Shown here in pieces: positions 3,000 through 63,355 of a DNA stretch of 64,000 nt. Made by a program: the position numbers and the translations under genes. The stretch is taken from the IMG/VR virus record IMGVR_UViG_2894708747_000001; one strand, given 5' to 3'. How positions within the stretch are numbered: position 1 is the first letter of the stretch; every line of letters starts with the position of its first letter. The notes under the pieces were generated by a model, which saw nothing but the letters and a program-made list of their open reading frames with translations, did not search any database and was not told where the DNA came from. The stretch is from a virus. Its lineage: Duplodnaviria; Caudoviricetes.

Positions 3000-3461
3000 T
3001 TAACCTACCTCCCGATAAGCGAAATACTCTCTGCCTCTATATAATATACGAATCTCCATCCCTAAGAAAAAAGAGTACCCATATAAATCAAGTACCTTAT
3101 CCACAAACTTATTAAATCCTACTACTTTATCTACAAAATTAACCAACTCAAAACTGTTATCTAGAAATACCCCCTCTTTAAGAGCAGGTATAGAAGAGAA
3201 AAGTATATCTCTATAACTCACAAGATTATTTTCTAATATTTCTTTTACAACCTGGAATCTTTCTTCATCAGTAAGAACTAGATATTCATAACCGTTAATC
3301 ATATAAGCAAAGTCAGGGAAGGTTAATTCCCTGACTTCATGTAAAGGAACGTTTAGATACCATGCTAGAGCCTGTTTTTTACTAACAGGTTGCCTTTTAT
3401 TTAGATAATGTCTTATTTTGCGGTAGAAGGATACAGAGGGTATTTCTTCTACAACCATCAT
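3000..3461 (-). CDS. hypothetical protein
   Basis: 153-aa ORF, AAGGAG RBS. Confidence 0.65.
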   Translation of the reverse strand: MMVVEEIPSVSFYRKIRHYLNKRQPVSKKQALAWYLNVPLHEVRELTFPDFAYMINGYEYLVLTDEERFQVVKEILENNLVSYRDILFSSIPALKEGVFLDNSFELVNFVDKVVGFNKFVDKVLDLYGYSFFLGMEIRILYRGREYFAYREVG

Positions 3462-3517
3462 AAATATTCGCTCCTTACTATAAAGTCCCCCAGGAGAGGG
3501 TGGAGGTGTGAATGGGT

Positions 3518-4177
3518 TTAGGCTTCCTTTAATACTCTAATTTTCTTAGGCACTAAAATTTCTTTTTCCTCAATGATATAATTTCTGCATATATCTATAA
3601 ACAGGTCACGAACTTCATCACATAATTTATCAAAACTCTGCACTAGTTTAACTCTATCTCTAAGGCTTTCCATATCCCAAACCTCAAAATCCTCATACAT
3701 ATCTACACCTTTTCCTGGATATGTGAAAATTTCTTTTGGTGGGGTTTTATAATTAACTCTTGCATAGGCCCCGCATCGTCCACATTGATTTTTGCCCTCA
3801 CTTGCAGGTTGAAAATTCTTCTGACCACAACGAGTACAATATGATTTATAACTTGAATACTTCCAGCCTCCTTGATATAAAACTAAATAGCCGCCACTAC
3901 GTCCATTAAAACCAACTTGCCACTGATAATCATGTTCTGCCGCCCAATCTTCAAGAAGGGAATTGATTTCAAAATAAACCTCATCCATATCCAACATATC
4001 CCAGGCTTTATTTTTAATATCTTCAGGAAGGTTTAGTTTATATATTTTGACACAATTAGCATAACTGGTAGCGTTATTCCAGCTATTCATGGTATGATAA
4101 CGGAAATGATTCCTTAAAAAGGAAATCATGGCTTCCCGATTTCTTTTATCTACTTCTTGATAAAACATAAAGAACAC
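3518..4177 (-). CDS. phage hypothetical protein with inserted Zn ribbon
   Basis: HFRYHTMNSWN and GFNGRSGGYLVL motifs; CxxC...CxxC insert. Confidence 0.75.
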   Translation of the reverse strand: MFFMFYQEVDKRNREAMISFLRNHFRYHTMNSWNNATSYANCVKIYKLNLPEDIKNKAWDMLDMDEVYFEINSLLEDWAAEHDYQWQVGFNGRSGGYLVLYQGGWKYSSYKSYCTRCGQKNFQPASEGKNQCGRCGAYARVNYKTPPKEIFTYPGKGVDMYEDFEVWDMESLRDRVKLVQSFDKLCDEVRDLFIDICRNYIIEEKEILVPKKIRVLKEA

Positions 4178-5289: not shown

Positions 5290-6651
5290 TTATGCTACTT
5301 CTAGATCAGATGCAGAAGCATCTAATAATTGATTTACAAACTTCCTAATCTCTTCAGCATCTCTTTCATCTAATTCAGGAATTATCTGATCAGCTTCCTT
5401 TAAATGTCGTGTAATCAAATAGGCTTTAAGTTCACCACTCACTCCTTCAATGAATTTTTCCCAAGTTAATTCTTGAATCTCATTGACAGGAGTGTTTATA
5501 GCCATCTTAACTAGTCGTTCTACAAACTGGAGGGTGGCAATAAAAGTCGTATACTTTAACGTTCCTCTAAATAACCTAATTTCAATAGTATTGTTATTTT
5601 CGAGATTAATAGCATAATATCTTCCGCTTCCTTTAGCTCTTTCTAAAATCTCTTCAGGTTTTGCTAAACCATAACGTTTAGCCCAACGGTCTAATTGAGA
5701 ATTAGTTCGTCGAGAAAATTTAACCATCTGATCCCAAAATCTTTCCACCAGAAATAACAGCTTCATGATATTAGTATCTTGTTCATCTTCGTTTTTACCA
5801 AATGCTTTACGACTCACATGAACATGCAATCCACAATTCCCATTATCGTGGGAAGTATAGCCCAACTTCTTAGCTTTTTCCATAATTTGTTTCCAAGGAA
5901 TGTAATTTATATGATATTCAAGGGTGGCGGGGTGAGAGACAATCTCTAAACCCCGTGAAAGTGATCCATCGTGTTTAATGTAAATATACTCATTATCTTC
6001 ATTGCCAACATCTAAAATTGCCTCAGCTTTATCTTGATACTCACCTCCACCATCAATTTCCAACTCCACTCCCAGAAACAACGAACCCTCTCCATAGAAA
6101 ATTGGAGAGGGTTTATAATTATAACTATGTATTACTCTTGACCTATGCTCTTCATAACAATTACGGCAATATATTTCATCATCATCATCTTCATTCATAT
6201 AAGTATAATCACTATGAATAATTCGACCACAATCACTACAACGATAATAACTTTCGTTAAAGCAATCCTCACAGATTTGAGTACCATAATCATCCGTCAA
6301 TACTTCATCATAGGGAACTGCTTCACCGCAGACATCACAAATTGCAAATCTTTCATTAAAACAATCAGGGCAGTATCCTTCACCGTCATAATAATAAGCA
6401 TCCTCTTGATATAAAATTTCATTACAAACTACACAAGAGGTAAATCTTTCACACCAACAATCGTTACAATATAATTTCCCATTTGCCCCTTCATTAGCTT
6501 CATCACGATAAATTACTTCATTACATCCATAGCAAATAACAAACAGATCATTATAGCAATCTTCACAAAAATAATCACCGTTAACTTCATAAGCCTCATC
6601 AAAATCAATTTCTATTTCACATTCAGCACAAAGAATCAGTTCATCAGACAT
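5290..6651 (-). CDS. putative amidoligase (COOH-NH2 ligase) with N-terminal tandem CxxC Zn-finger repeats
   Basis: GVELEI, HDGSL, GLEIVSHP, CGLHVHV, RYxAIN, TIEIRLFRGT; about five CxxC..CxxC units in aa 7-165. Confidence 0.85.
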   Translation of the reverse strand: MSDELILCAECEIEIDFDEAYEVNGDYFCEDCYNDLFVICYGCNEVIYRDEANEGANGKLYCNDCWCERFTSCVVCNEILYQEDAYYYDGEGYCPDCFNERFAICDVCGEAVPYDEVLTDDYGTQICEDCFNESYYRCSDCGRIIHSDYTYMNEDDDDEIYCRNCYEEHRSRVIHSYNYKPSPIFYGEGSLFLGVELEIDGGGEYQDKAEAILDVGNEDNEYIYIKHDGSLSRGLEIVSHPATLEYHINYIPWKQIMEKAKKLGYTSHDNGNCGLHVHVSRKAFGKNEDEQDTNIMKLLFLVERFWDQMVKFSRRTNSQLDRWAKRYGLAKPEEILERAKGSGRYYAINLENNNTIEIRLFRGTLKYTTFIATLQFVERLVKMAINTPVNEIQELTWEKFIEGVSGELKAYLITRHLKEADQIIPELDERDAEEIRKFVNQLLDASASDLEVA

Positions 6652-6654
6652 CTT

Positions 6655-6867
6655 TTACTCCTCCTTGAATTTAATGATTTTAATAAAATTATCTTCCCGC
6701 TCTAAGACAAAATCAGAGGAAAGACGTTCTTCCATAAAATCCATTATTTCCGTTAACATATCTTTTGGAGGCGGTGGGGGCGGCGAGGGAAGTTTTGTAG
6801 CTAAATTAAATACTATTGCCATGACAACAATAGCAAGAATTACAATAACCCTTTTCATTACCACCAT
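6655..6867 (-). CDS. small membrane protein
   Basis: N-terminal hydrophobic helix, poly-Pro linker. Confidence 0.6.
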   Translation of the reverse strand: MVVMKRVIVILAIVVMAIVFNLATKLPSPPPPPPKDMLTEIMDFMEERLSSDFVLEREDNFIKIIKFKEE

Positions 6868-6981
6868 CCCATTTTGTTAAATTTTTATCTTTTAACAACT
6901 CTATGGTATATATAAGGATATATACTAATAGCTAGAAAAAAGCTATAAAATAAAACCTTATTAAATTGTAATTATTTAATT

Positions 6982-7020
6982 AAAAAGAGGGGGAGGCGGG
7001 GAGAAAAACTCACCCCGCCC
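6982..7020 (-). terminator. probable intrinsic terminator
   Basis: GGCGGGG/CCCCGCC stem with a downstream T run on the minus strand. Confidence 0.45.
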
Positions 7021-7041
7021 TTTATATAGTGAGAGGAGGAG

Positions 7042-7122
7042 TTAACTTTGTAAATAACCAATTGCCAGCATAACAATATCCAGCACTACAAATCCAAAAC
7101 CAAGGAACCCAAGAGTCTCCAT
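7042..7122 (-). CDS. 26-aa single-TM peptide
   Basis: AGGAGTG RBS; METLGFLGFGFVVLDIVMLAIGYLQS*. Confidence 0.55.
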   Translation of the reverse strand: METLGFLGFGFVVLDIVMLAIGYLQS

Positions 7123-7132
7123 GATCTCACTC

Positions 7133-7204
7133 CTATTCAGGCATAACTGTAAGAAAAACAACCGCCATTACCAACCACATAACTAAAAAAGGAATACCGT
7201 ACAT
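7133..7204 (-). CDS. 23-aa single-TM peptide
   Basis: AAGGAGG RBS; MYGIPFLVMWLVMAVVFLTVMPE*. Confidence 0.55.
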   Translation of the reverse strand: MYGIPFLVMWLVMAVVFLTVMPE

Positions 7205-7234
7205 AAGACAGCCTCCTTAATGGGATAAGGGGAG

Positions 7235-7552
7235 TTAAAACTCCTCACACTCCCAAAATCCAAAATCACTTCCATCACCAGGATGGCTTCCGAAATAACA
7301 ACCTTTAGGGGCAATTTCATCTAACGCATCAAATAAAGTCTCTAAAAGCCAATCAACATCTTCAGGACGCTCTTCGATAAAATCTTTAATAATTTCTAGA
7401 TCCCAATCTTTAGGCAAATTATATAATCTTAACAAGTTATTGGCTTGTTCAGGCCAGTAGTGTTCTAACAGATCGAGAAAACGAGGGATCAAGTCTTCAC
7501 TTCTCAGAGTTCCAGAAATAACCGAACCAGTGAAGTCAACAGGCTTTTTCAT
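7235..7552 (-). CDS. phage hypothetical protein
   Basis: AGGAGGAG RBS before MKKPVD; GTLRSEDLIPRF and YFGSHPGDGSDFGFW motifs. Confidence 0.75.
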   Translation of the reverse strand: MKKPVDFTGSVISGTLRSEDLIPRFLDLLEHYWPEQANNLLRLYNLPKDWDLEIIKDFIEERPEDVDWLLETLFDALDEIAPKGCYFGSHPGDGSDFGFWECEEF

Positions 7553-7749
7553 TGGAAACTCCTCCTTTATTCCGCCCACGGCGGCGGGCGAGGTTAATAT
7601 AAAGAGTTATTACTCTCCCTATAACCGTCTTATACAAAAACAGCTATAGGCAAAATAATACCTCCCATAGCAATTCCTTGGACATAGGGATAACTAGCCT
7701 AACAAGTTTCTCAGCAGGGTTACTGCCCTCTTTGAGCCCATATAGGGCT

Positions 7750-7923
7750 CTACTGGATCTGTATCATCCAGGGCAATTCCCTGGATCGATACGCCTGATC
7801 CAAAATAGTTTGAGCTTCTTGGCGACTCAAAGGGCTCCACCCCAAGTCGCCCATACCTAGCTCCCTAATTACAGCCAGGGCTTTTTCCAAACTAACTATA
7901 AACCTCTGGCCTTTCTTATACAT
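7750..7923 (-). CDS. 57-aa hypothetical protein enclosed by an inverted repeat
   Basis: GGAGGT RBS before MYKKGQRF; the longer ORF-track start runs through the stem. Confidence 0.65.
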   Translation of the reverse strand: MYKKGQRFIVSLEKALAVIRELGMGDLGWSPLSRQEAQTILDQAYRSRELPWMIQIQ

Positions 7924-8784
7924 AAAAAGACCTCCTTTGGCCTTATATATAGGCTCAAAGAAGGCAGTAACAGTAAACGCTATCCACTTATGCGTAGCAT
8001 CCAGGAAGCGGATAGAGCCTACTAAACCTGCTGACTGGCATAGGATTTCCCCTTCGCACAATGCCAGCTATATTGATACAGCACTCTCCCGCTACCTCCC
8101 AATCCTAGCCTGGGGCGGGCGGGGTGAAGAACTATATCAATATAGAAAACCCATACTATATAAACACACACACATAAAAGACAGACTAAGAGTCCAAAAG
8201 ATATTCCTAGGATAAATAAAGAGAGAGCTAACTAATCTATATAACTCCAAGCGTAGCAAGGCAGTCATAAGGATTAATAAGCCCGCACTAATAGGAATCC
8301 TTGGACTCTTAGCCTGTCCCTAGTATGGAATTCCTGGTAAGCAGACTAAATCTGCAATAAGCAGACTAATATTAGTAAATTTAGCCTACCAATAGCAGGC
8401 CCGCCAATGGGCAAACTAATCCTGCTGATAGGTTGGTTTAACCTGCTAATAGCTAATCTGCTAACAGGCAGATCTAGCCTGCTTACCAAAGGAATTTGCT
8501 AGGCATCGCTATCCCTATGGCCTGGGCCTTCTGGTGCGGTTGCGAATTGGGCAGACTAATCCCGCAGAAAGCTAGTCGCCTGAGTAATTGGCAAACTGCT
8601 TGCGTAGCAAGGCAGTCACCAGTTATATTTCGCTACCACTAAGCAAAATTACGCTAGTTAATAGTATGTGTAAGAAAAACTCGGTGTCTATCGAAAACTA
8701 GCGAAAATTACTATAGTGACAGCGAAATCAAGCGGACTAACTCCTAGGATAGGATTAGTTCACCTAATTCTGCCGCTATAGCCA

Positions 8785-8812
8785 ACCGCACATAATATAC
8801 ATTATGAGCGGT
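8785..8812. other. palindromic dif-like Xer recombination site
   Basis: ACCGCACATAA-TATACA-TTATGAGCGGT (11-6-11); reverse strand carries CATAATGTATATTATG, the E. coli dif core. Confidence 0.65.
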
Positions 8813-8861
8813 TTCTAGCTATTGGATTGTGAGCAGATAGGGAGCCAGTAGCTCCCTGGAA

Positions 8862-9278
8862 CTAGGCTGACTTGCTCATAAGTTGAGCCATAGCTTGCGC
8901 TATGGCCTGGGCGAGCATATTCGGATCTATGGCAGACTGGGCTGGTGCAGGAGTAGTCTCTTTCTTAGACTCCTGCTTAGTAGCCTTCTTAGGAGCAGAT
9001 TCCTTTTTCGCCTGCTCAGGCTTGAAGCCAATGGGCGGCTTGCATCCAGTCGCCTTGACGATATTCTGGATGCCTTCTGGCGTAGCCACAACATTAAGTT
9101 GAAAGCTAACACCCTGGAACTCTGGAGAGGTGAGCTTACTCCAGCCGTGGCTGGTGGCTACAAGATAACTCTTGCCTGTACTCGACAAGCTGGCAGTCTC
9201 TAATTGCGCCAGATCGACGGCAAGAATTAGCTTGCTTCCCTTGAAGCCTACGCGAATGTTCTCGATGTTTTTGGACAT
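8862..9278 (-). CDS. basic small protein, possibly nucleic-acid binding, enclosed by an inverted repeat
   Basis: AGGAGGAG RBS; LILAVDL...SSTGKSYLVATSHG core and K/A/P-rich tail. Confidence 0.8.
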   Translation of the reverse strand: MSKNIENIRVGFKGSKLILAVDLAQLETASLSSTGKSYLVATSHGWSKLTSPEFQGVSFQLNVVATPEGIQNIVKATGCKPPIGFKPEQAKKESAPKKATKQESKKETTPAPAQSAIDPNMLAQAIAQAMAQLMSKSA

Positions 9279-10424
9279 GATAAGACTCCTCCTCTAGATT
9301 TTTTGGGGCTACTGGAGCCCTATCTGCCCACAATCCGCCGCCAGAATCCCAGGCTGTCCCTACGATTCCTGCATTACCGATTCTTCCATGCAGTCCTTCT
9401 CTGGTACTAGGCCCGCATAATGCAAGAGGCTTTTCCACAGGCATAGACACTAGCCAAAATAAGGCCACAACTGCCACTCGATCATCCAGAAGCCACTCCA
9501 TGCATAGCATGGCAGGGACTCCTGTCCCTATGCACAGGAGAATCCTTATTCCGCTTAGGCCACGCCTGGGTAGTTATCCTACTGGCTTACCTTCCCAGGA
9601 GTCGGGACACTCCTTCATCCTGAACCGTTTTCCCGTAATGCGTAGCATTACGAGTCCACGATCCGATCAGGAGTCAATATGCAGTTATCAAAGACCAGGT
9701 TTTTCGCATGTCTTTGGTGCGTTGCACCGCCAACCGCAATGCCACAATAGCATGGCCGTGGCGATTGTGGAGAGGTTGGTGCAGATTAATTTTTTTAACC
9801 TCAAATTTTTTGGCGGCTCTTTTTGTTTCACTCCCCCCGATGCCTTGGAAATAAAGGCGTGGCCGTTTCGGGCGGCGGAGCATCATGATCCCTACAGGAA
9901 ATTTTTCAAAAATGTTATTGCGAGTAGGTAATACCTATACTGGAAAAACATTAAAGAAAAACAATTGCGCCTATCCTAAAATTAGGAAGGAGGGATTATT
10001 ATGCGGCCTTGTATAGTGGGGTGGTTCTATGCGTTAAAATGGCTTATAAAAACTGGATTGGTTTTTAATTCAAAAACAAGAAAAATCCGTTGGAAATTTG
10101 GGCGAGAATTAATTAAACATAAGTATTTTTGGTACACAAGGCAAGAAAAATCTAAATACACAAAAATAGTGAAGAAATTAAATTAAGAATTACCAAGTTT
10201 ACAATACATCAAGAGAAGAAATGATTAAATTTTACATTAATGGGCTATACTTAAAGGTAACAGATCCCGTCACACCTCTGTTACCTCTAAAGCGTATCTC
10301 TATCTTACTAGTGGATAGAGATAGGTGGGTAATACGTGGCCCAGGGCGGGACAAGCAAATAAGCCACCTTGTTTATTGGGGTCGCATTTGCGGTCGGCAA
10401 GGTGGCATAAAAATTTTCATCTGC

Positions 10425-10458
10425 CCTCTTAAAAATGCTATATAACCCTTCGTATATG
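10425..10458 (+). promoter_or_regulatory. putative phage (middle-type) promoter of the ncRNA cluster
   Basis: CCTCTTAA-N18-CGTATATG, identical boxes at 16132-16165 (minus). Confidence 0.55.
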
Positions 10459-10468
10459 TACTATGAAA

Positions 10469-10575
10469 GGGGAAAACCAGTATAATAGCCATGCTGACGG
10501 CCCTAGAGTAAGCTGGGTGACGGGGAGGCGCGCACCCTGTCGGCTTGATGGATCAAAAATCCGCTGGTTTTCCCC
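10469..10575 (+). ncRNA. unknown structured RNA A
   Basis: Perfect 12-bp closing stem GGGGAAAACCAG/CTGGTTTTCCCC with internal hairpins. Confidence 0.6.
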
Positions 10576-10585
10576 AATTGGATAT

Positions 10586-10660
10586 ACAGGTGTAGCTCAA
10601 TGGTAGAGCGTCTGGCTGTTAACCAGATGGGTGTAGGTTCGAGTCCTACCACCTGTGCCA
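10586..10660 (+). tRNA. tRNA-Asn(GTT)
   Basis: Acceptor ACAGGTG/CACCTGT, D arm GCTC/GAGC, anticodon arm TCTGG-CTGTTAA-CCAGA, T arm GTAGG-TTCGAGT-CCTAC, G73 and encoded CCA. Confidence 0.95.
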
Positions 10661-10663
10661 ACT

Positions 10664-10725
10664 TGCCCTGCCTGCCTGAAAGCCTAAGTGCTACTTGGGT
10701 GACGTAGTGTAGGAAGGGTGGGGCA
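10664..10725 (+). ncRNA. unknown structured RNA B
   Basis: Closing stem TGCCCTGCC/GGTGGGGCA (with G.U pairs), inner hairpin GCCTAAGT/ACTTGGGT. Confidence 0.5.
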
Positions 10726-10729
10726 TATA

Positions 10730-10913
10730 TGAGTTAGCTAACTCCGAGGTGGGTCAAGGCATGAACCAGGGTGTTTCGGTGGCCTTGGCGAAAGGGTAAG
10801 AATAAATTGTTGTGGAGCTTTAGGCTCATTTTAATTAACTAATAAGGGTAGTCCGAGTAGGGGAGATATAAACCGACGGCACTGAAAGGACGTGTAGGAG
10901 TTACACTAACTCA
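10730..10913 (+). ncRNA. unknown structured RNA C (184 nt)
   Basis: TGAGTTAG-C-TAACTCC pairs with GGAGTTA-CA-CTAACTCA; inner stems GTCAAGGC/GCCTTGGC, GAGC/GCTC, GTCC/GGAC. Confidence 0.55.
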
Positions 10914-10932
10914 GAAACACAAAATTATAAAA

Positions 10933-11016
10933 GGAGCAACGATTACATTAAATGGGGGCGTGGTAGGCACGCCGACGATGGGTTGGCTAGTTTGCGGGAA
11001 CCTAGCCCATTGCTCC
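10933..11016 (+). ncRNA. unknown structured RNA D
   Basis: GGAGCAA/TTGCTCC closing stem; hairpins GGCGTG/CACGCC and GGCTAG/CTAGCC. Confidence 0.55.
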
Positions 11017-11025
11017 CAAGATTAC

Positions 11026-11044
11026 AGCCCCATAAGGGGCTTTT
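11026..11044 (+). terminator. intrinsic terminator ending the ncRNA cluster
   Basis: AGCCCC-ATAA-GGGGCT followed by T run. Confidence 0.7.
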
Positions 11045-11064
11045 AAATTTAAAGGAGGAAAAAT

Positions 11065-11211
11065 ATGAATGAATTATGCCAAGTTTGCATCAATCCATGT
11101 AAAAACAATAAACAAAAATTAACTCCTGATGGGTTAGATTGTAAAGAATGGTTTCCAACTAAAGAGTGGCTACAGAAAATGAATTTATATCCTTATTGGT
11201 GGGTGGATTAA
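11065..11211 (+). CDS. 48-aa Cys-rich protein
   Basis: AAGGAGG RBS; MNELCQVCINPC...C. Confidence 0.6.
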   Translation: MNELCQVCINPCKNNKQKLTPDGLDCKEWFPTKEWLQKMNLYPYWWVD

Positions 11212-60780: not shown

Positions 60781-61342
60781 CTTCTCTGATTTCTAAATTA
60801 ATGCGGTATTGAATCCCACTTTCATCTAGAGCGGCACTTAATTTCATAAGTTTGTCAATTAGGTTCTTACCTTCATATTCTCCCCGAAGAATTAAGATAA
60901 ACTTATCTGATGGTTCTGTTTCACTGGTATCGGGTTGATAGATTTCTAATTGATGAGCTTTTTTATAGGTAGTTTTTCTACGGGTGCTTCCTACAGGCAG
61001 ATTAAGTTCACGTACTATATTATAAAATTTTCCTTTAGATATGCCCCATATTTTAATTATTTCTTCAGCACTTTTCTCTTCCCGCCATTTTTGTAGGACT
61101 TCGGCTTGTTTTTCTCGGTTTAGTTGTTGAAATTCATCAAAAGAAAGTATTTCATCATACATAGAGTAAATTCGCACCTCACTCGGTTGAGTATATTTTT
61201 GGGCTTCTTCACCTTGTAATAATTCAAAAGGCATGTAAATGCGACCAGTTTTTCCTGTACGAGAGGCTCGACCGTGAACACCTGTAGCGGCTCGTTTTTG
61301 TTCACGTTGTTCTTCTTTCAGTAATTTTTCTATTTCATTCAT
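60776..61342 (-). CDS. hypothetical protein with HTH-like segment
   Basis: SAEEIIKIWGISKGKFYNIV; coupled to the recombinase gene. Confidence 0.7.
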   Translation of the reverse strand: MNEIEKLLKEEQREQKRAATGVHGRASRTGKTGRIYMPFELLQGEEAQKYTQPSEVRIYSMYDEILSFDEFQQLNREKQAEVLQKWREEKSAEEIIKIWGISKGKFYNIVRELNLPVGSTRRKTTYKKAHQLEIYQPDTSETEPSDKFILILRGEYEGKNLIDKLMKLSAALDESGIQYRINLEIREV

Positions 61343-62186
61343 TAGACACCTTCTCCCTAGCGTGTGGGTGGAAGCGGAGATATTCTAGTCGATTTCGGGT
61401 ATTACTAACTTTAGTATATAAATTAGTGGTATTGGGGCTGGCGTGACCAGCTAAGTCTTGAATGACTTTTAATTCAGCGCCCGCTTTGTATAAGTGACTA
61501 CAAAACGAGTGACGAAATTTGTGGGGGGTGATGTTTTCTTGTTTTATTTTTTGTGCCCACTTTTTTACTATGTCATTGACTTGACGGGTGGATAGGTGGT
61601 TATTTTTACGGCCTGGAAAAAGCCATTTACTATTGTGAGTTTGTATAAGTTCTTTGATAAGCATTAAGATTTTAGGATAGAGAGGAATAATTCGTTCCTT
61701 ATTACCTTTACCAATCACTCTAAGACTACCTTCTTGAAGGTCTATATCACTAATTTTAATATTGACGAGTTCTTCTCTTCTTATTCCTGTAGCATACAAA
61801 ATTTCCATGATAGTTCTATCTCTTAGGTTGTCTGGAGCATTAATAAGTTTTTCTATTGTTTGTTCGTCTATAGGATGGGGCAGTCGTTGTTCTGTTTTTG
61901 CTGTTTCTATGAGGGCGGCAGGGTTTTGGTCTATAATACCTTTACGAAGCATTACATTAAAAAAGGTTTTAATCGCGGATAATTTTCTATTAGCGGTGGC
62001 GACTGAGACTCCTTTCATATGTAGATTCACGAGAAAAGCTGAAATGTCGTCGGGAACAATTTTTTCAGGTGTTTTGTTTATAAATCGGAAAAACTGTTGA
62101 ATATCAGAGAGATATGCACTAACTGTGTTATGAGAAAAGTTTTTTTCTATTTCAAGGTAAAGTTGAAATTTCTCTAGGTAGTTCAA
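61335..62186 (-). CDS. XerC/XerD-family tyrosine recombinase
   Basis: SAM-like N-domain, YATGIRREEL, GKGNKER, HKFRHSF, LAGHA, TNLY; 283 aa with no arm-binding domain. Confidence 0.92.
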   Translation of the reverse strand: MNYLEKFQLYLEIEKNFSHNTVSAYLSDIQQFFRFINKTPEKIVPDDISAFLVNLHMKGVSVATANRKLSAIKTFFNVMLRKGIIDQNPAALIETAKTEQRLPHPIDEQTIEKLINAPDNLRDRTIMEILYATGIRREELVNIKISDIDLQEGSLRVIGKGNKERIIPLYPKILMLIKELIQTHNSKWLFPGRKNNHLSTRQVNDIVKKWAQKIKQENITPHKFRHSFCSHLYKAGAELKVIQDLAGHASPNTTNLYTKVSNTRNRLEYLRFHPHAREKVSNE

Positions 62187-62305: not shown

Positions 62306-63355
62306 ATGGACTTGTTTGATGTTCGATTTGCGTCTACGGAAAAAGAGTTTATTTATAATTTCGGTGTTAATCGTGGTCATTCTCTTTCTTATGCTAAGGT
62401 AAACAGGTGTTTGTTTTTATCGGATGCCGCGAAACAGTTGTACCATAGTTTATGTGACTATGCTTATGGTGAAAGAAAAGACTGCTACCCTAGTCAGGCC
62501 CTTTTACGATTGGGGTTGGGGTGGAGTAAACAAACTCTTAGTAATCACTTAAAAGAGTTAGAAAAAATGGGTTTTATTACTATAGAAAAAGAAGGGTTTG
62601 GAAAACCAGCTAAGTATAACCTGCAAGAACTTCATAAAATACCTGCTTTATATCATTCGGAAATTATTTACTCTATTCGTCCCACTAGTACAGAGGAACT
62701 GGAAAAGTTTTATACGGCGGTGGTGGAGTATAAAAAATCAGATCTTTGTAGAGAAATTATGGATTCGGCTAATCCGCTGGCTTATATGGAACAAATAAAA
62801 TTGTGGTTTAAAACTTTTTTGGGGTTAGATAATACAAGTAATTCCTCTGAAGAAGAAAAAGTAGAAGAAGTGAAGGATAAATCCTCTAAAAGTAATAAAG
62901 TGAAGTTAACAACACCTAAAGTTTTTAAAGTTGATCCATTAATCCAAGAAGAAAATCTTATAATCTCTAAAAAGAAACGGCGGAGATTGAGCTATAAAGA
63001 AATTGATGTGGAAGATTGGAATACTAATCATTTTGTGGCTTATTTTGAGGATCTTTATTGGGAAAAGTATCATGCTCCTTATATAACCACTAAAGCTGAT
63101 CGGGGGGCGATGAAACGGCTTTTAAATAGTGGTAAAAGTAAAGCGATGCTTAAACAACATATTGAGAATTTCATTTCTCTTGATTTCTTTGAGGCTCCGA
63201 CAATAACTAGTTTCAGTTCCAGTTATGTGCAGGCTGTTTTGGATACTTATTTAAGTACAAGAAGATTGCCTACATTTAAGCGAAAGAGTAATCATGGCGG
63301 GAAGATTAATGAAGAATGGGCGCGGGGTTTGGATGAATTAATGGATAGTGATTAG
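62306..63355 (+). CDS. winged-HTH replication initiator
   Basis: LSDAAKQLY...CYPSQALL...LKELEKMGFI; upstream of the DnaC-like gene. Confidence 0.75.
   Translation: MDLFDVRFASTEKEFIYNFGVNRGHSLSYAKVNRCLFLSDAAKQLYHSLCDYAYGERKDCYPSQALLRLGLGWSKQTLSNHLKELEKMGFITIEKEGFGKPAKYNLQELHKIPALYHSEIIYSIRPTSTEELEKFYTAVVEYKKSDLCREIMDSANPLAYMEQIKLWFKTFLGLDNTSNSSEEEKVEEVKDKSSKSNKVKLTTPKVFKVDPLIQEENLIISKKKRRRLSYKEIDVEDWNTNHFVAYFEDLYWEKYHAPYITTKADRGAMKRLLNSGKSKAMLKQHIENFISLDFFEAPTITSFSSSYVQAVLDTYLSTRRLPTFKRKSNHGGKINEEWARGLDELMDSD

Follow-up and report, generated by a model that had tools for sequence, protein, structure and literature searches.

Nested long-range stems around two small genes at the head of a leftward phage gene block, and their proposed reading as a processed minus-strand RNA

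The 64,000-nt stretch of DNA analysed here (the window; IMG/VR record IMGVR_UViG_2894708747_000001) makes up the leading 64 kb of a contig of 103,282 bp (37.5% G+C) that belongs to a tailed double-stranded DNA (dsDNA) phage with genes for terminase, portal, major head and tape-measure proteins. The host assembly amounts to 3.06 Mb in 10 contigs, the large ones of 53.5–55% G+C, and contains a 99.98% complete host genome and the phage as a separate 103-kb contig. Between two divergent gene blocks of the phage lies a 2.2-kb island (7580–9800) with a G+C content of 43–51%, as compared with ~34% in its flanks. The island heads a leftward block, which extends from ~9300 down to 1 and codes, among others, for a phage protein of 114 aa (phrog_29605), for an amidoligase that carries a zinc-finger array and for a glutamine amidotransferase; a short rightward block that holds a tRNA-Asn and a DUF3800-VIII RNA begins at ~9965. 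Two small open reading frames (ORFs) of 57 and 138 aa are found in the island, each enclosed by the arms of a long inverted repeat, referred to below as its clamp. With the exception of one palindrome, which is assigned to neither strand, all parts of the island described here are assigned to the minus strand, and for each stem the arm that would be the 3′ arm of a minus-strand RNA is given first.

The clamp of the 57-aa ORF (7750–7923) joins 7719–7749 to 7939–7971 through 27 Watson–Crick pairs, with 2 + 2 wobbles on the two strands and a 2-nt bulge, and has a pairing probability of 0.92 on both strands. The clamp of the 138-aa ORF (8862–9278) joins 8823–8856 to 9305–9337 through 29 Watson–Crick pairs, with 1 + 1 wobbles, a 2 × 2 internal loop and one bulge, and its pairing probability is 0.88. 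The clamps span 26–33 columns, so that both form a helix of at least ~20 bp across the enclosed product, as rRNA-type stalks do. Each clamp encloses an ORF with its Shine–Dalgarno sequence and little else. At the 57-aa ORF the strong ribosome-binding site AGGAGG directly follows the 5′ arm and the stop codon abuts the extended 3′ arm; at the 138-aa ORF the 5′ arm ends 26 nt ahead of the ATG, the interval containing GAGGAGGAG, and 5 nt separate the stop codon from the 3′ arm. The strong Shine–Dalgarno sequences of both ORFs lie within the loops and are unpaired in the centroid structures.

Around the clamps run two outer stems, 7683–7711/8490–8519 (24 Watson–Crick pairs in 30 columns) and 8520–8535/9340–9354 (13 in 16 columns). 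These arms stand back to back: outer stem 1 abuts the clamp of the 57-aa ORF, the two outer stems meet at 8519/8520, and the 5′ arm of outer stem 2 directly adjoins that of the clamp of the 138-aa ORF. Outer stem 1 encloses the first clamp and four hairpins. The hairpin at 7972–8023 (14 Watson–Crick pairs; three G·U on the minus strand and none on the plus; pairing probability 0.94 minus, 0.74 plus) carries a GCGTAGC mini-hairpin in its apical loop; the next is at 8068–8145 (0.84 minus, 0.79 plus). Two long ORF-free hairpins follow. One, of ~180 nt (8150–8329), has eight G·U pairs on the minus strand against one on the plus, a GCAGACTAA box with a central G·U in its base and a GCGTAGC triloop as its tip; the other, of ~165 nt (8330–8495), has 49 pairs, including seven G·U on the minus strand, and its internally repetitive arms contain three boxes of the GCAGACTAA type. 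Within outer stem 2 lie the second clamp, an ORF-free domain with several branches and a hairpin formed by a palindrome. The branched domain (8544–8770) is closed by the stem 8544–8583/8728–8770 (six G·U minus, two plus) and has inner hairpins at 8589–8621, again with a GCGTAGC triloop, and 8627–8728. The hairpin at 8785–8812 is a 28-nt palindrome (11 + 6 + 11), whose central six bases, read on the reverse strand, we take to be those of the centre of the Escherichia coli dif site; no other site with up to seven mismatches was found elsewhere in the genome, host contigs included, so it was not copied from a host site. Outside the outer stems, a hairpin at 7604–7664 (21 Watson–Crick pairs, five G·U and two mismatches) lies just upstream of the ribosome-binding site of the next gene, and the G+C-rich, ORF-poor stretch 9355–9800 contains several hairpins, including one at 9632–9654 tipped by the last of the four copies of GCGTAGC in the island.

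An earlier note on this DNA, made from the sequence alone, had pointed out the two ORF clamps and the bases of both long hairpins, and an inverted-repeat search returned all four of them: 8824–8855/9305–9336 (32 nt, 88%), 7719–7744/7946–7971 (26 nt, 92%), 8335–8355/8468–8488 (21 nt, 90%) and 8180–8197/8301–8318 (18 nt, 94%). The outer stem that it had also drawn is part of the minimum free energy structure of both strands but is weaker than the clamps; like outer stem 2, it falls under the 14-nt reporting length of the repeat search, yet both are found in the minimum free energy folds of either strand. The pairing probability is 0.71 (minus) and 0.81 (plus) for outer stem 1 and 0.59 (minus) and 0.86 (plus) for outer stem 2.

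The stems are highly non-random and occur far beyond chance. At a length of at least 20 nt and at least 88% complementarity, the only inverted repeats in the window are those of the island. A scan for ungapped repeats of at least 20 nt, with a match of at least 86% and arms no more than ~1.5 kb apart, found four strong inverted repeats on the whole 103-kb contig, three of them inside the island. The fourth (102770–102823), beyond the window and near the right end of the contig, is a local hairpin of 25 nt (88%) with a 4-nt loop. With the added requirement that the arms be at least 60 nt apart, the same scan gave 25 pairs in 68 phage loci (1,010,418 nt) and 27 pairs in 80 others (891,663 nt), a background from which 0.06 pairs would be expected in 2.2 kb, compared with the three observed (Poisson P = 3.6e-5). 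When folding energies were compared with 20 dinucleotide shuffles per region and strand, a check that the earlier note had proposed, both strands were far below their shuffles; the minus strand did better in 8515–9360 (z of −11.2, against −7.8 for the plus strand) but not in 7675–8525 (−14.7 against −15.6). All 12 stems tested had pairing probabilities of 0.59–0.94 in the ensemble of the 2,221-nt minus strand.

Folding of the whole island gave −944.2 kcal/mol for the minus strand and −809.8 kcal/mol for the plus strand. The minus strand is rich in G and U and its shuffles also fold better, so we used tests that do not depend on composition. For a census of wobbles, each arm of 13 stems was aligned to the reverse complement of its partner, which gave 349 Watson–Crick columns, 41 A·C on the plus strand (that is, G·U on the minus strand), 15 G·T on the plus strand, 46 transversion mismatches and 56 gap columns. 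The 41:15 bias has a one-sided binomial P of 0.0003 against an even expectation (0.5), 0.007 against the base composition of the island and 3e-5 against the transition spectrum between the phage and the close relative described below; that spectrum slightly favours plus-strand wobbles (87 changes creating them, as opposed to 74 creating minus-strand ones), which is opposite to the bias in the census. The earlier note had counted about 12 A·C against about two G·T; the direction is right but the counts are not, the seven stems that it named having 28 and 10, and the overall ratio is ~2.7:1 instead of 6:1. The bias is concentrated in the local hairpins. One of them, 7604–7664, forms on the minus strand only (pairing probability 0.90, compared with 0.06 on the plus strand). 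In local windows of 240 nt, the z-score was lower on the minus strand in all nine windows from 8160 to 9359, for example −9.7 (minus) and −4.3 (plus) in 8280–8519.

A close relative of the phage is carried on contigs of four subsurface metagenome runs of one study. It has eight differences from the phage in 4000–8953, four of them in 5556–8953; the differences considered here one by one are 40 of 286 and lie at positions up to 9132, so the arms at 9305–9354 fall beyond them. Only two of these substitutions are inside stems, and both keep a wobble on the minus strand: 8718 G>A, opposite 8637, and 8824 G>A, opposite 9336, each turn a G–C pair into G·U on the minus strand and into A·C on the plus strand. 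Beside the clamp of the 138-aa ORF, 8821 A>G would make a U·G into a C–G pair on the minus strand, and 8584 G>C falls in a junction. To the right of ~8954 the relative has diverged by 3–6% or more, with higher values in the N-terminal half of the 138-aa gene, and a 93-nt block (9457–9551) is replaced by another of the same length. The last 30 codons of the 138-aa gene are identical in DNA; together with the divergence to their right, this places a mosaic breakpoint at ~8954, within the gene and not at the stems. Selection on a folded minus-sense single strand, as claimed in the earlier note, is moderately supported by the 41:15 wobbles, the minus-only hairpin and the two G–C to G·U changes.

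In the 138-aa frame, the differences of the relative in 9033–9132 are at third codon positions, so that the ORF is under purifying selection and is a real gene. Its product is predicted to have a beta domain of ~65 aa at the N terminus and a helix at the C terminus, joined by a Lys/Ala/Pro linker (AlphaFold2 predicted local distance difference test score of 74.8), and is 82% identical to a second protein (P0002). An exhaustive HMMER search of 1.84 billion representative sequences found 13 proteins that match it. They share a beta domain of ~60 aa with the consensus G.KL.L.VDL ... S..GKSYLVA.SHG ... LNV, which occurs in tandem copies in several of them, 16 in P0003 (1808 aa), four in P0010 (313 aa) and two in P0007 (139 aa), and is therefore a repeatable module. 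The domain has no Pfam model, and the protein had no match in Pfam, in PHROGs or in a sequence search of the PDB; fold searches with the protein (Foldseek against pdb and viral structures, and a wide VIA search) gave a best Z of 2.4, and a search of the Atlas returned only unnamed phage clusters. By sequence, the 138-aa protein is a member of a small uncharacterised phage family. A search of 101 relatives and 13 genomes of the genus with the 138-aa protein found only the protein itself, and P0002 was not found on genome or metagenome contigs. Searches of viral contigs with P0002 or alignment A1 returned two distant loci (L002 and L098), neither of which has the layout of the island; searches with the Nlig-Ia gene or the amidoligase alone returned none. 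Neither DNA shared with the island nor a homologue of either enclosed ORF was present in the loci that carry relatives of the 114-aa gene (68 loci) or of the amidoligase (80 loci). Locus L002 is the only one in IMG/VR with a recognizable homologue (40%) of the N-terminal domain of the 138-aa protein, a 65-aa ORF; a hairpin formed by a 34-nt, 91% inverted repeat is found there (L002:9794–9980), and its 3′ arm covers the start codon of that ORF. The 57-aa ORF has no match in Pfam or PHROGs and its sole relative is a 96%-identical variant (T39I, R46Q), which is why we regard it as only probably coding. A search for called ORFs across the non-coding parts of the island returned only the window's own records.

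The best-supported reading of these data, to which we would assign a probability of about 0.55, is that the island specifies a minus-strand RNA made of nested, gene-enclosing processing stalks and ORF-free hairpins that are closed by outer stems. The island (7580–9800) would be transcribed leftward as the head of an operon and onward into the genes for the 114-aa protein, the amidoligase and the glutamine amidotransferase, and the minus-sense RNA would fold into a closed set of nested helices. Each of the two clamps (26–32 bp) would leave a single small gene, ribosome-binding site included, in its loop. The domain of outer stem 1 would present one clamped gene and four hairpins, two of them long, and that of outer stem 2 the second clamped gene, the branched ORF-free domain and the palindromic hairpin. 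The host RNase III could then cut the helices, releasing single-gene messages and ORF-free hairpin RNAs, and as the released RNAs would keep their 5′ and 3′ ends paired, they would be shielded from exonucleases. We infer the transcription across the island, the cleavage, the stabilization and any role of the hairpins. Production of end-paired monocistronic mRNAs by processing is plausible, since the stems are 26–32 bp long and the host has a gene for RNase III (239.6 bits, with a cut-off of 166.25). The idealized substrate of this enzyme is 22 bp long, and internal loops limit cutting to one strand, according to PMC3867540; the stems are longer than that and carry internal loops or bulges. The least certain part of the scheme is the stretch 9355–9800, presumed to be the 5′ leader, the local z-score of which is just −0.8 to −3.7; a weak, promoter-like sigma-70-type site is found at 9909–9882 on the minus strand. 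Two suggestions of the earlier note find no support. The mRNAs had been called possibly circularizable, and no ribozyme or other Rfam family was found in the island at the gathering score or at E ≤ 5. That the island might be a structured single-stranded DNA (ssDNA) entering the cell first is unlikely in a tailed dsDNA phage, the more so as a metagenome contig extends beyond the first base of the window, so the island does not sit at a fixed end of the genome.

Several observations weigh against this reading. Both ORF clamps and outer stem 1 lack a strand bias in their wobbles (2:2, 1:1 and 2:2, respectively), the shuffle z-score of 7675–8525 is not better on the minus strand, and in 7560–8279 the local z-score is lower on the plus strand in three of five windows. 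The four GCGTAGC tips can be read as GNA triloops on the plus strand, and GNA triloops are a hallmark of stable DNA mini-hairpins; they would point to the other strand. Both the dif-like palindrome and the 9-mer, which recurs in one orientation, could serve as sites on DNA. No other part of the phage is built in such a way, and the other genes of the operon have no clamps. Finally, the comparative support comes from a single near-identical relative with four differences in 5556–8953, and the differences considered end at 9132.

A variant that we regard as improbable keeps the minus-strand RNA but makes it a single modular molecule of ~2 kb, or a cut set, whose hairpins bind the proteins encoded in its own loops, that is, a self-encoded ribonucleoprotein that would serve as messenger and as structural or decoy RNA. 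The long hairpins do have a recurring duplex box, GCAGRCUAA/UUAGUCUGC, with a fixed G·U, and four identical C(UAC)G tips are present; the 138-aa protein with its basic Lys/Ala/Pro tail would be the obvious candidate binder.

The other explanations place the function of the repeats, if any, in DNA. The arms could be targets of a site-specific recombinase, such as the phage's own tyrosine integrase (283 aa, 61335–62186), and bound either nested segments that can invert (invertons or a shufflon) or cassettes that can be exchanged. Inverted repeats of 26–32 bp around segments of 250–840 bp are of the size seen in known invertons, and a dif-like palindrome lies within the island; the recombinase, though, is 52 kb away, with none among the nine neighbouring ORFs scanned, the mosaic breakpoint near 8954 is within the 138-aa ORF and not at the arms, and recombination sites leave the 41:15 wobble bias, the one-strand hairpin and the imperfect hairpins of 150 nt unexplained. 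No strand-changing joint was seen in the contigs of the four metagenome runs, all of which have the orientation of the window (contigs can hide minor forms), and we give recombination sites slightly less credence than the ribonucleoprotein. An integron attC site is a local imperfect palindrome of 57–141 nt between cassettes, with the ends RYYYAAC...GTTRRRY; here the arms flank an ORF instead of lying between cassettes, and the clamp ends, GTTACTG...CAGTAAC, do not fit the required order of motifs, so this identity was rejected. Decidedly unlikely, in our view, is an array of protein-binding sites on dsDNA, which might serve as an origin or in partition or packaging, with the hairpins as a by-product of inverted iterons. 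The position of the island between divergent gene blocks would suit such an array, as would the fourfold GCGTAGC and the distribution of GCAGACTAA, for which seven of the 15 matches in the window with up to one mismatch are in 8181–9789, all on the plus strand. However, the boxes are irregularly spaced (160, 20, 50, 140 and 181 nt) and their inverse copies amount to no more than the facing arms of stems; typical origins, unlike the island, are not G+C-rich, and the replication-initiator-like gene is far off at 62306–63355; a strand bias of wobbles is not expected of duplex sites, and the loops are filled by two ORFs with good ribosome-binding sites.

The much higher G+C content of the island and both its ORFs than of the rest of the phage suggests a foreign origin, and the nesting resembles the insertion of one element into another. 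The stems might then be functionless relics of nested insertions with terminal inverted repeats, akin to miniature inverted-repeat transposable elements (MITEs), or parts of a foreign selfish module, which we rate marginally lower again than a binding-site array. The island is present in a single copy in its own 3.06-Mb genome, where it matched only itself, and had no match in 27 other genomes of the same order or, by blastn, in phage and plasmid collections; neither clamp is flanked by target-site duplications, the arms are private and have no terminal repeat in common, and the wobble bias speaks for selection that acts on a single strand. Membership in a MITE-like class was accordingly rejected. 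Least probable of all, and in our opinion very remote, is a structure in ssDNA, of the plus or the minus strand, that serves in replication or transfer as a signal for priming or as a promoter, in the manner of ssi or Frpo. The strand bias does show selection on a single strand, and in DNA of the plus strand the GCGTAGC tips would form GNA triloops, but the wobbles favour the minus strand and the triloops the plus strand, so that no single DNA strand fits both. Moreover, G·T stabilizes DNA less than G·U stabilizes RNA, this is a tailed dsDNA phage, and a non-exhaustive scan of the ORFs revealed no genes for a relaxase or for conjugation.

For a minus-strand RNA with processing stalks, the closest textbook parallel is the stems that flank 16S and 23S rRNA, two large structures cut by RNase III (PMC6582327). 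There (PMC6582327, PMC10250234), as proposed here, flanking sequences pair at a distance of hundreds of bases to form a helix longer than 20 bp, the product is looped out from a polycistronic precursor, and neighbouring helices are placed next to each other on it. The island differs in that the loops hold protein genes with ribosome-binding sites together with ORF-free hairpins, the helices are nested two deep, and cleavage is inferred. A pairing of both ends of one message is likewise described for Staphylococcus aureus icaR, where a duplex of the 5′ and 3′ untranslated regions (UTRs) is an RNase III substrate and masks the Shine–Dalgarno sequence (PMC3868564), and for Bacillus subtilis hbs, where a 14-bp duplex of the 5′ UTR with the 3′ UTR modulates cleavage by RNase Y (PMC5737220). 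These duplexes are short; the island has helices of 26–32 bp in a nested series, with the ribosome-binding site free in the loop. With the large ornate RNAs GOLLD, ROOL and OLE of bacteria and phages (PMC12286853 and PMC5737381), the island shares several hundred G+C-rich, ORF-free, structured bases in a phage, beside a cluster of tRNA and small RNA genes, but its ORF-free parts are mostly long imperfect hairpins and not multi-junction folds. The Rfam families searched, which included these three, ribozymes and riboswitches, gave matches only to tRNA-Asn and DUF3800-VIII, both outside the island, and nothing else credible at E ≤ 5 in 7000–11200.

RNase III sites also occur in the early polycistronic mRNAs of phage T7 (R0.3–R1.3) and the Bacillus phage SP82. 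In these phages, as would be the case here, double-stranded elements with internal loops, each spanning about two helical turns, punctuate the transcript of an operon, and cutting yields stable single-gene messages. The sites of T7 and SP82 form local hairpins in the intervals between genes, whereas the arms in the island flank a gene, so that the cut message would keep its ends paired. A search of the full-text literature (subscription journals being outside it) found no description of phage genes each enclosed in a long-range stem of its own. If the reading is correct, phages apply the logic of rRNA maturation to protein messages, which would be looped out by their own flanks, cut and left with clamped ends, and this might be a general way of setting the stability and stoichiometry of single genes within an operon; the island would be its nested form, with messages and long ORF-free hairpin RNAs in one frame. 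The host–phage pair looks cultivable, the genome being isolate-like, so the idea should be directly testable by ordinary experiments.

A few further observations concern the surroundings of the island and other phage loci. In the rightward block, which is G+C-rich and faces the island, the DUF3800-VIII RNA (10662–10727, plus strand; 43.2 bits, with a gathering score of 40.2) lies four bases past the tRNA-Asn (10586–10657). No stretch of the host, or of the phage outside the island, is complementary to the island over more than 17 nt. The host has two clustered regularly interspaced short palindromic repeat (CRISPR) arrays (C3:246553–249953 and C1:1277396–1280786), with repeat k-mers seen 51 and 23 times, and none of the 102 spacers extracted from the host matched the 103-kb contig of the phage over more than 17 nt exactly or more than 22 nt with mismatches. 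An RNA-based anti-CRISPR that mimics the repeat was considered and rejected: the best ungapped match to a host repeat in the island is 21/30 (at 8436, minus strand), and the next on the contig is 20/30.

The 16-mer GCGTAGCAAGGCAGTC is found in 26 IMG/VR loci (L072–L097), a number near chance by a rough estimate, and these loci have no further likeness to the island. In 20 of the 26 (e.g. L075:3254–3400), ~60–80 nt around the 16-mer are conserved and contain stop codons in all three frames, and an Rfam scan of five of the loci (L072, L075, L079, L084 and L092) found no family. These surroundings may represent an uncatalogued phage RNA element that is unrelated to the island save for the 16-mer. 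Finally, in amidoligase-bearing phage loci, inverted repeats of 20–34 nt bracket single ORFs or ORF-free stretches. Thus, among the IMG/VR loci with relatives of the amidoligase, in L177 (3484–4495) a repeat of 34 nt encloses an ORF of 273 aa; L157 contains a 27-nt repeat that brackets an ORF of 83 aa as well as a double nested stem around ~300 ORF-free bases (3252–3590 and 9178–9633); and in L101 (4717–5965), L103 (4674–6008) and L142 (423–1446) the downstream arm of the repeat lies at the start of the amidoligase gene or no more than ~36 nt from it.

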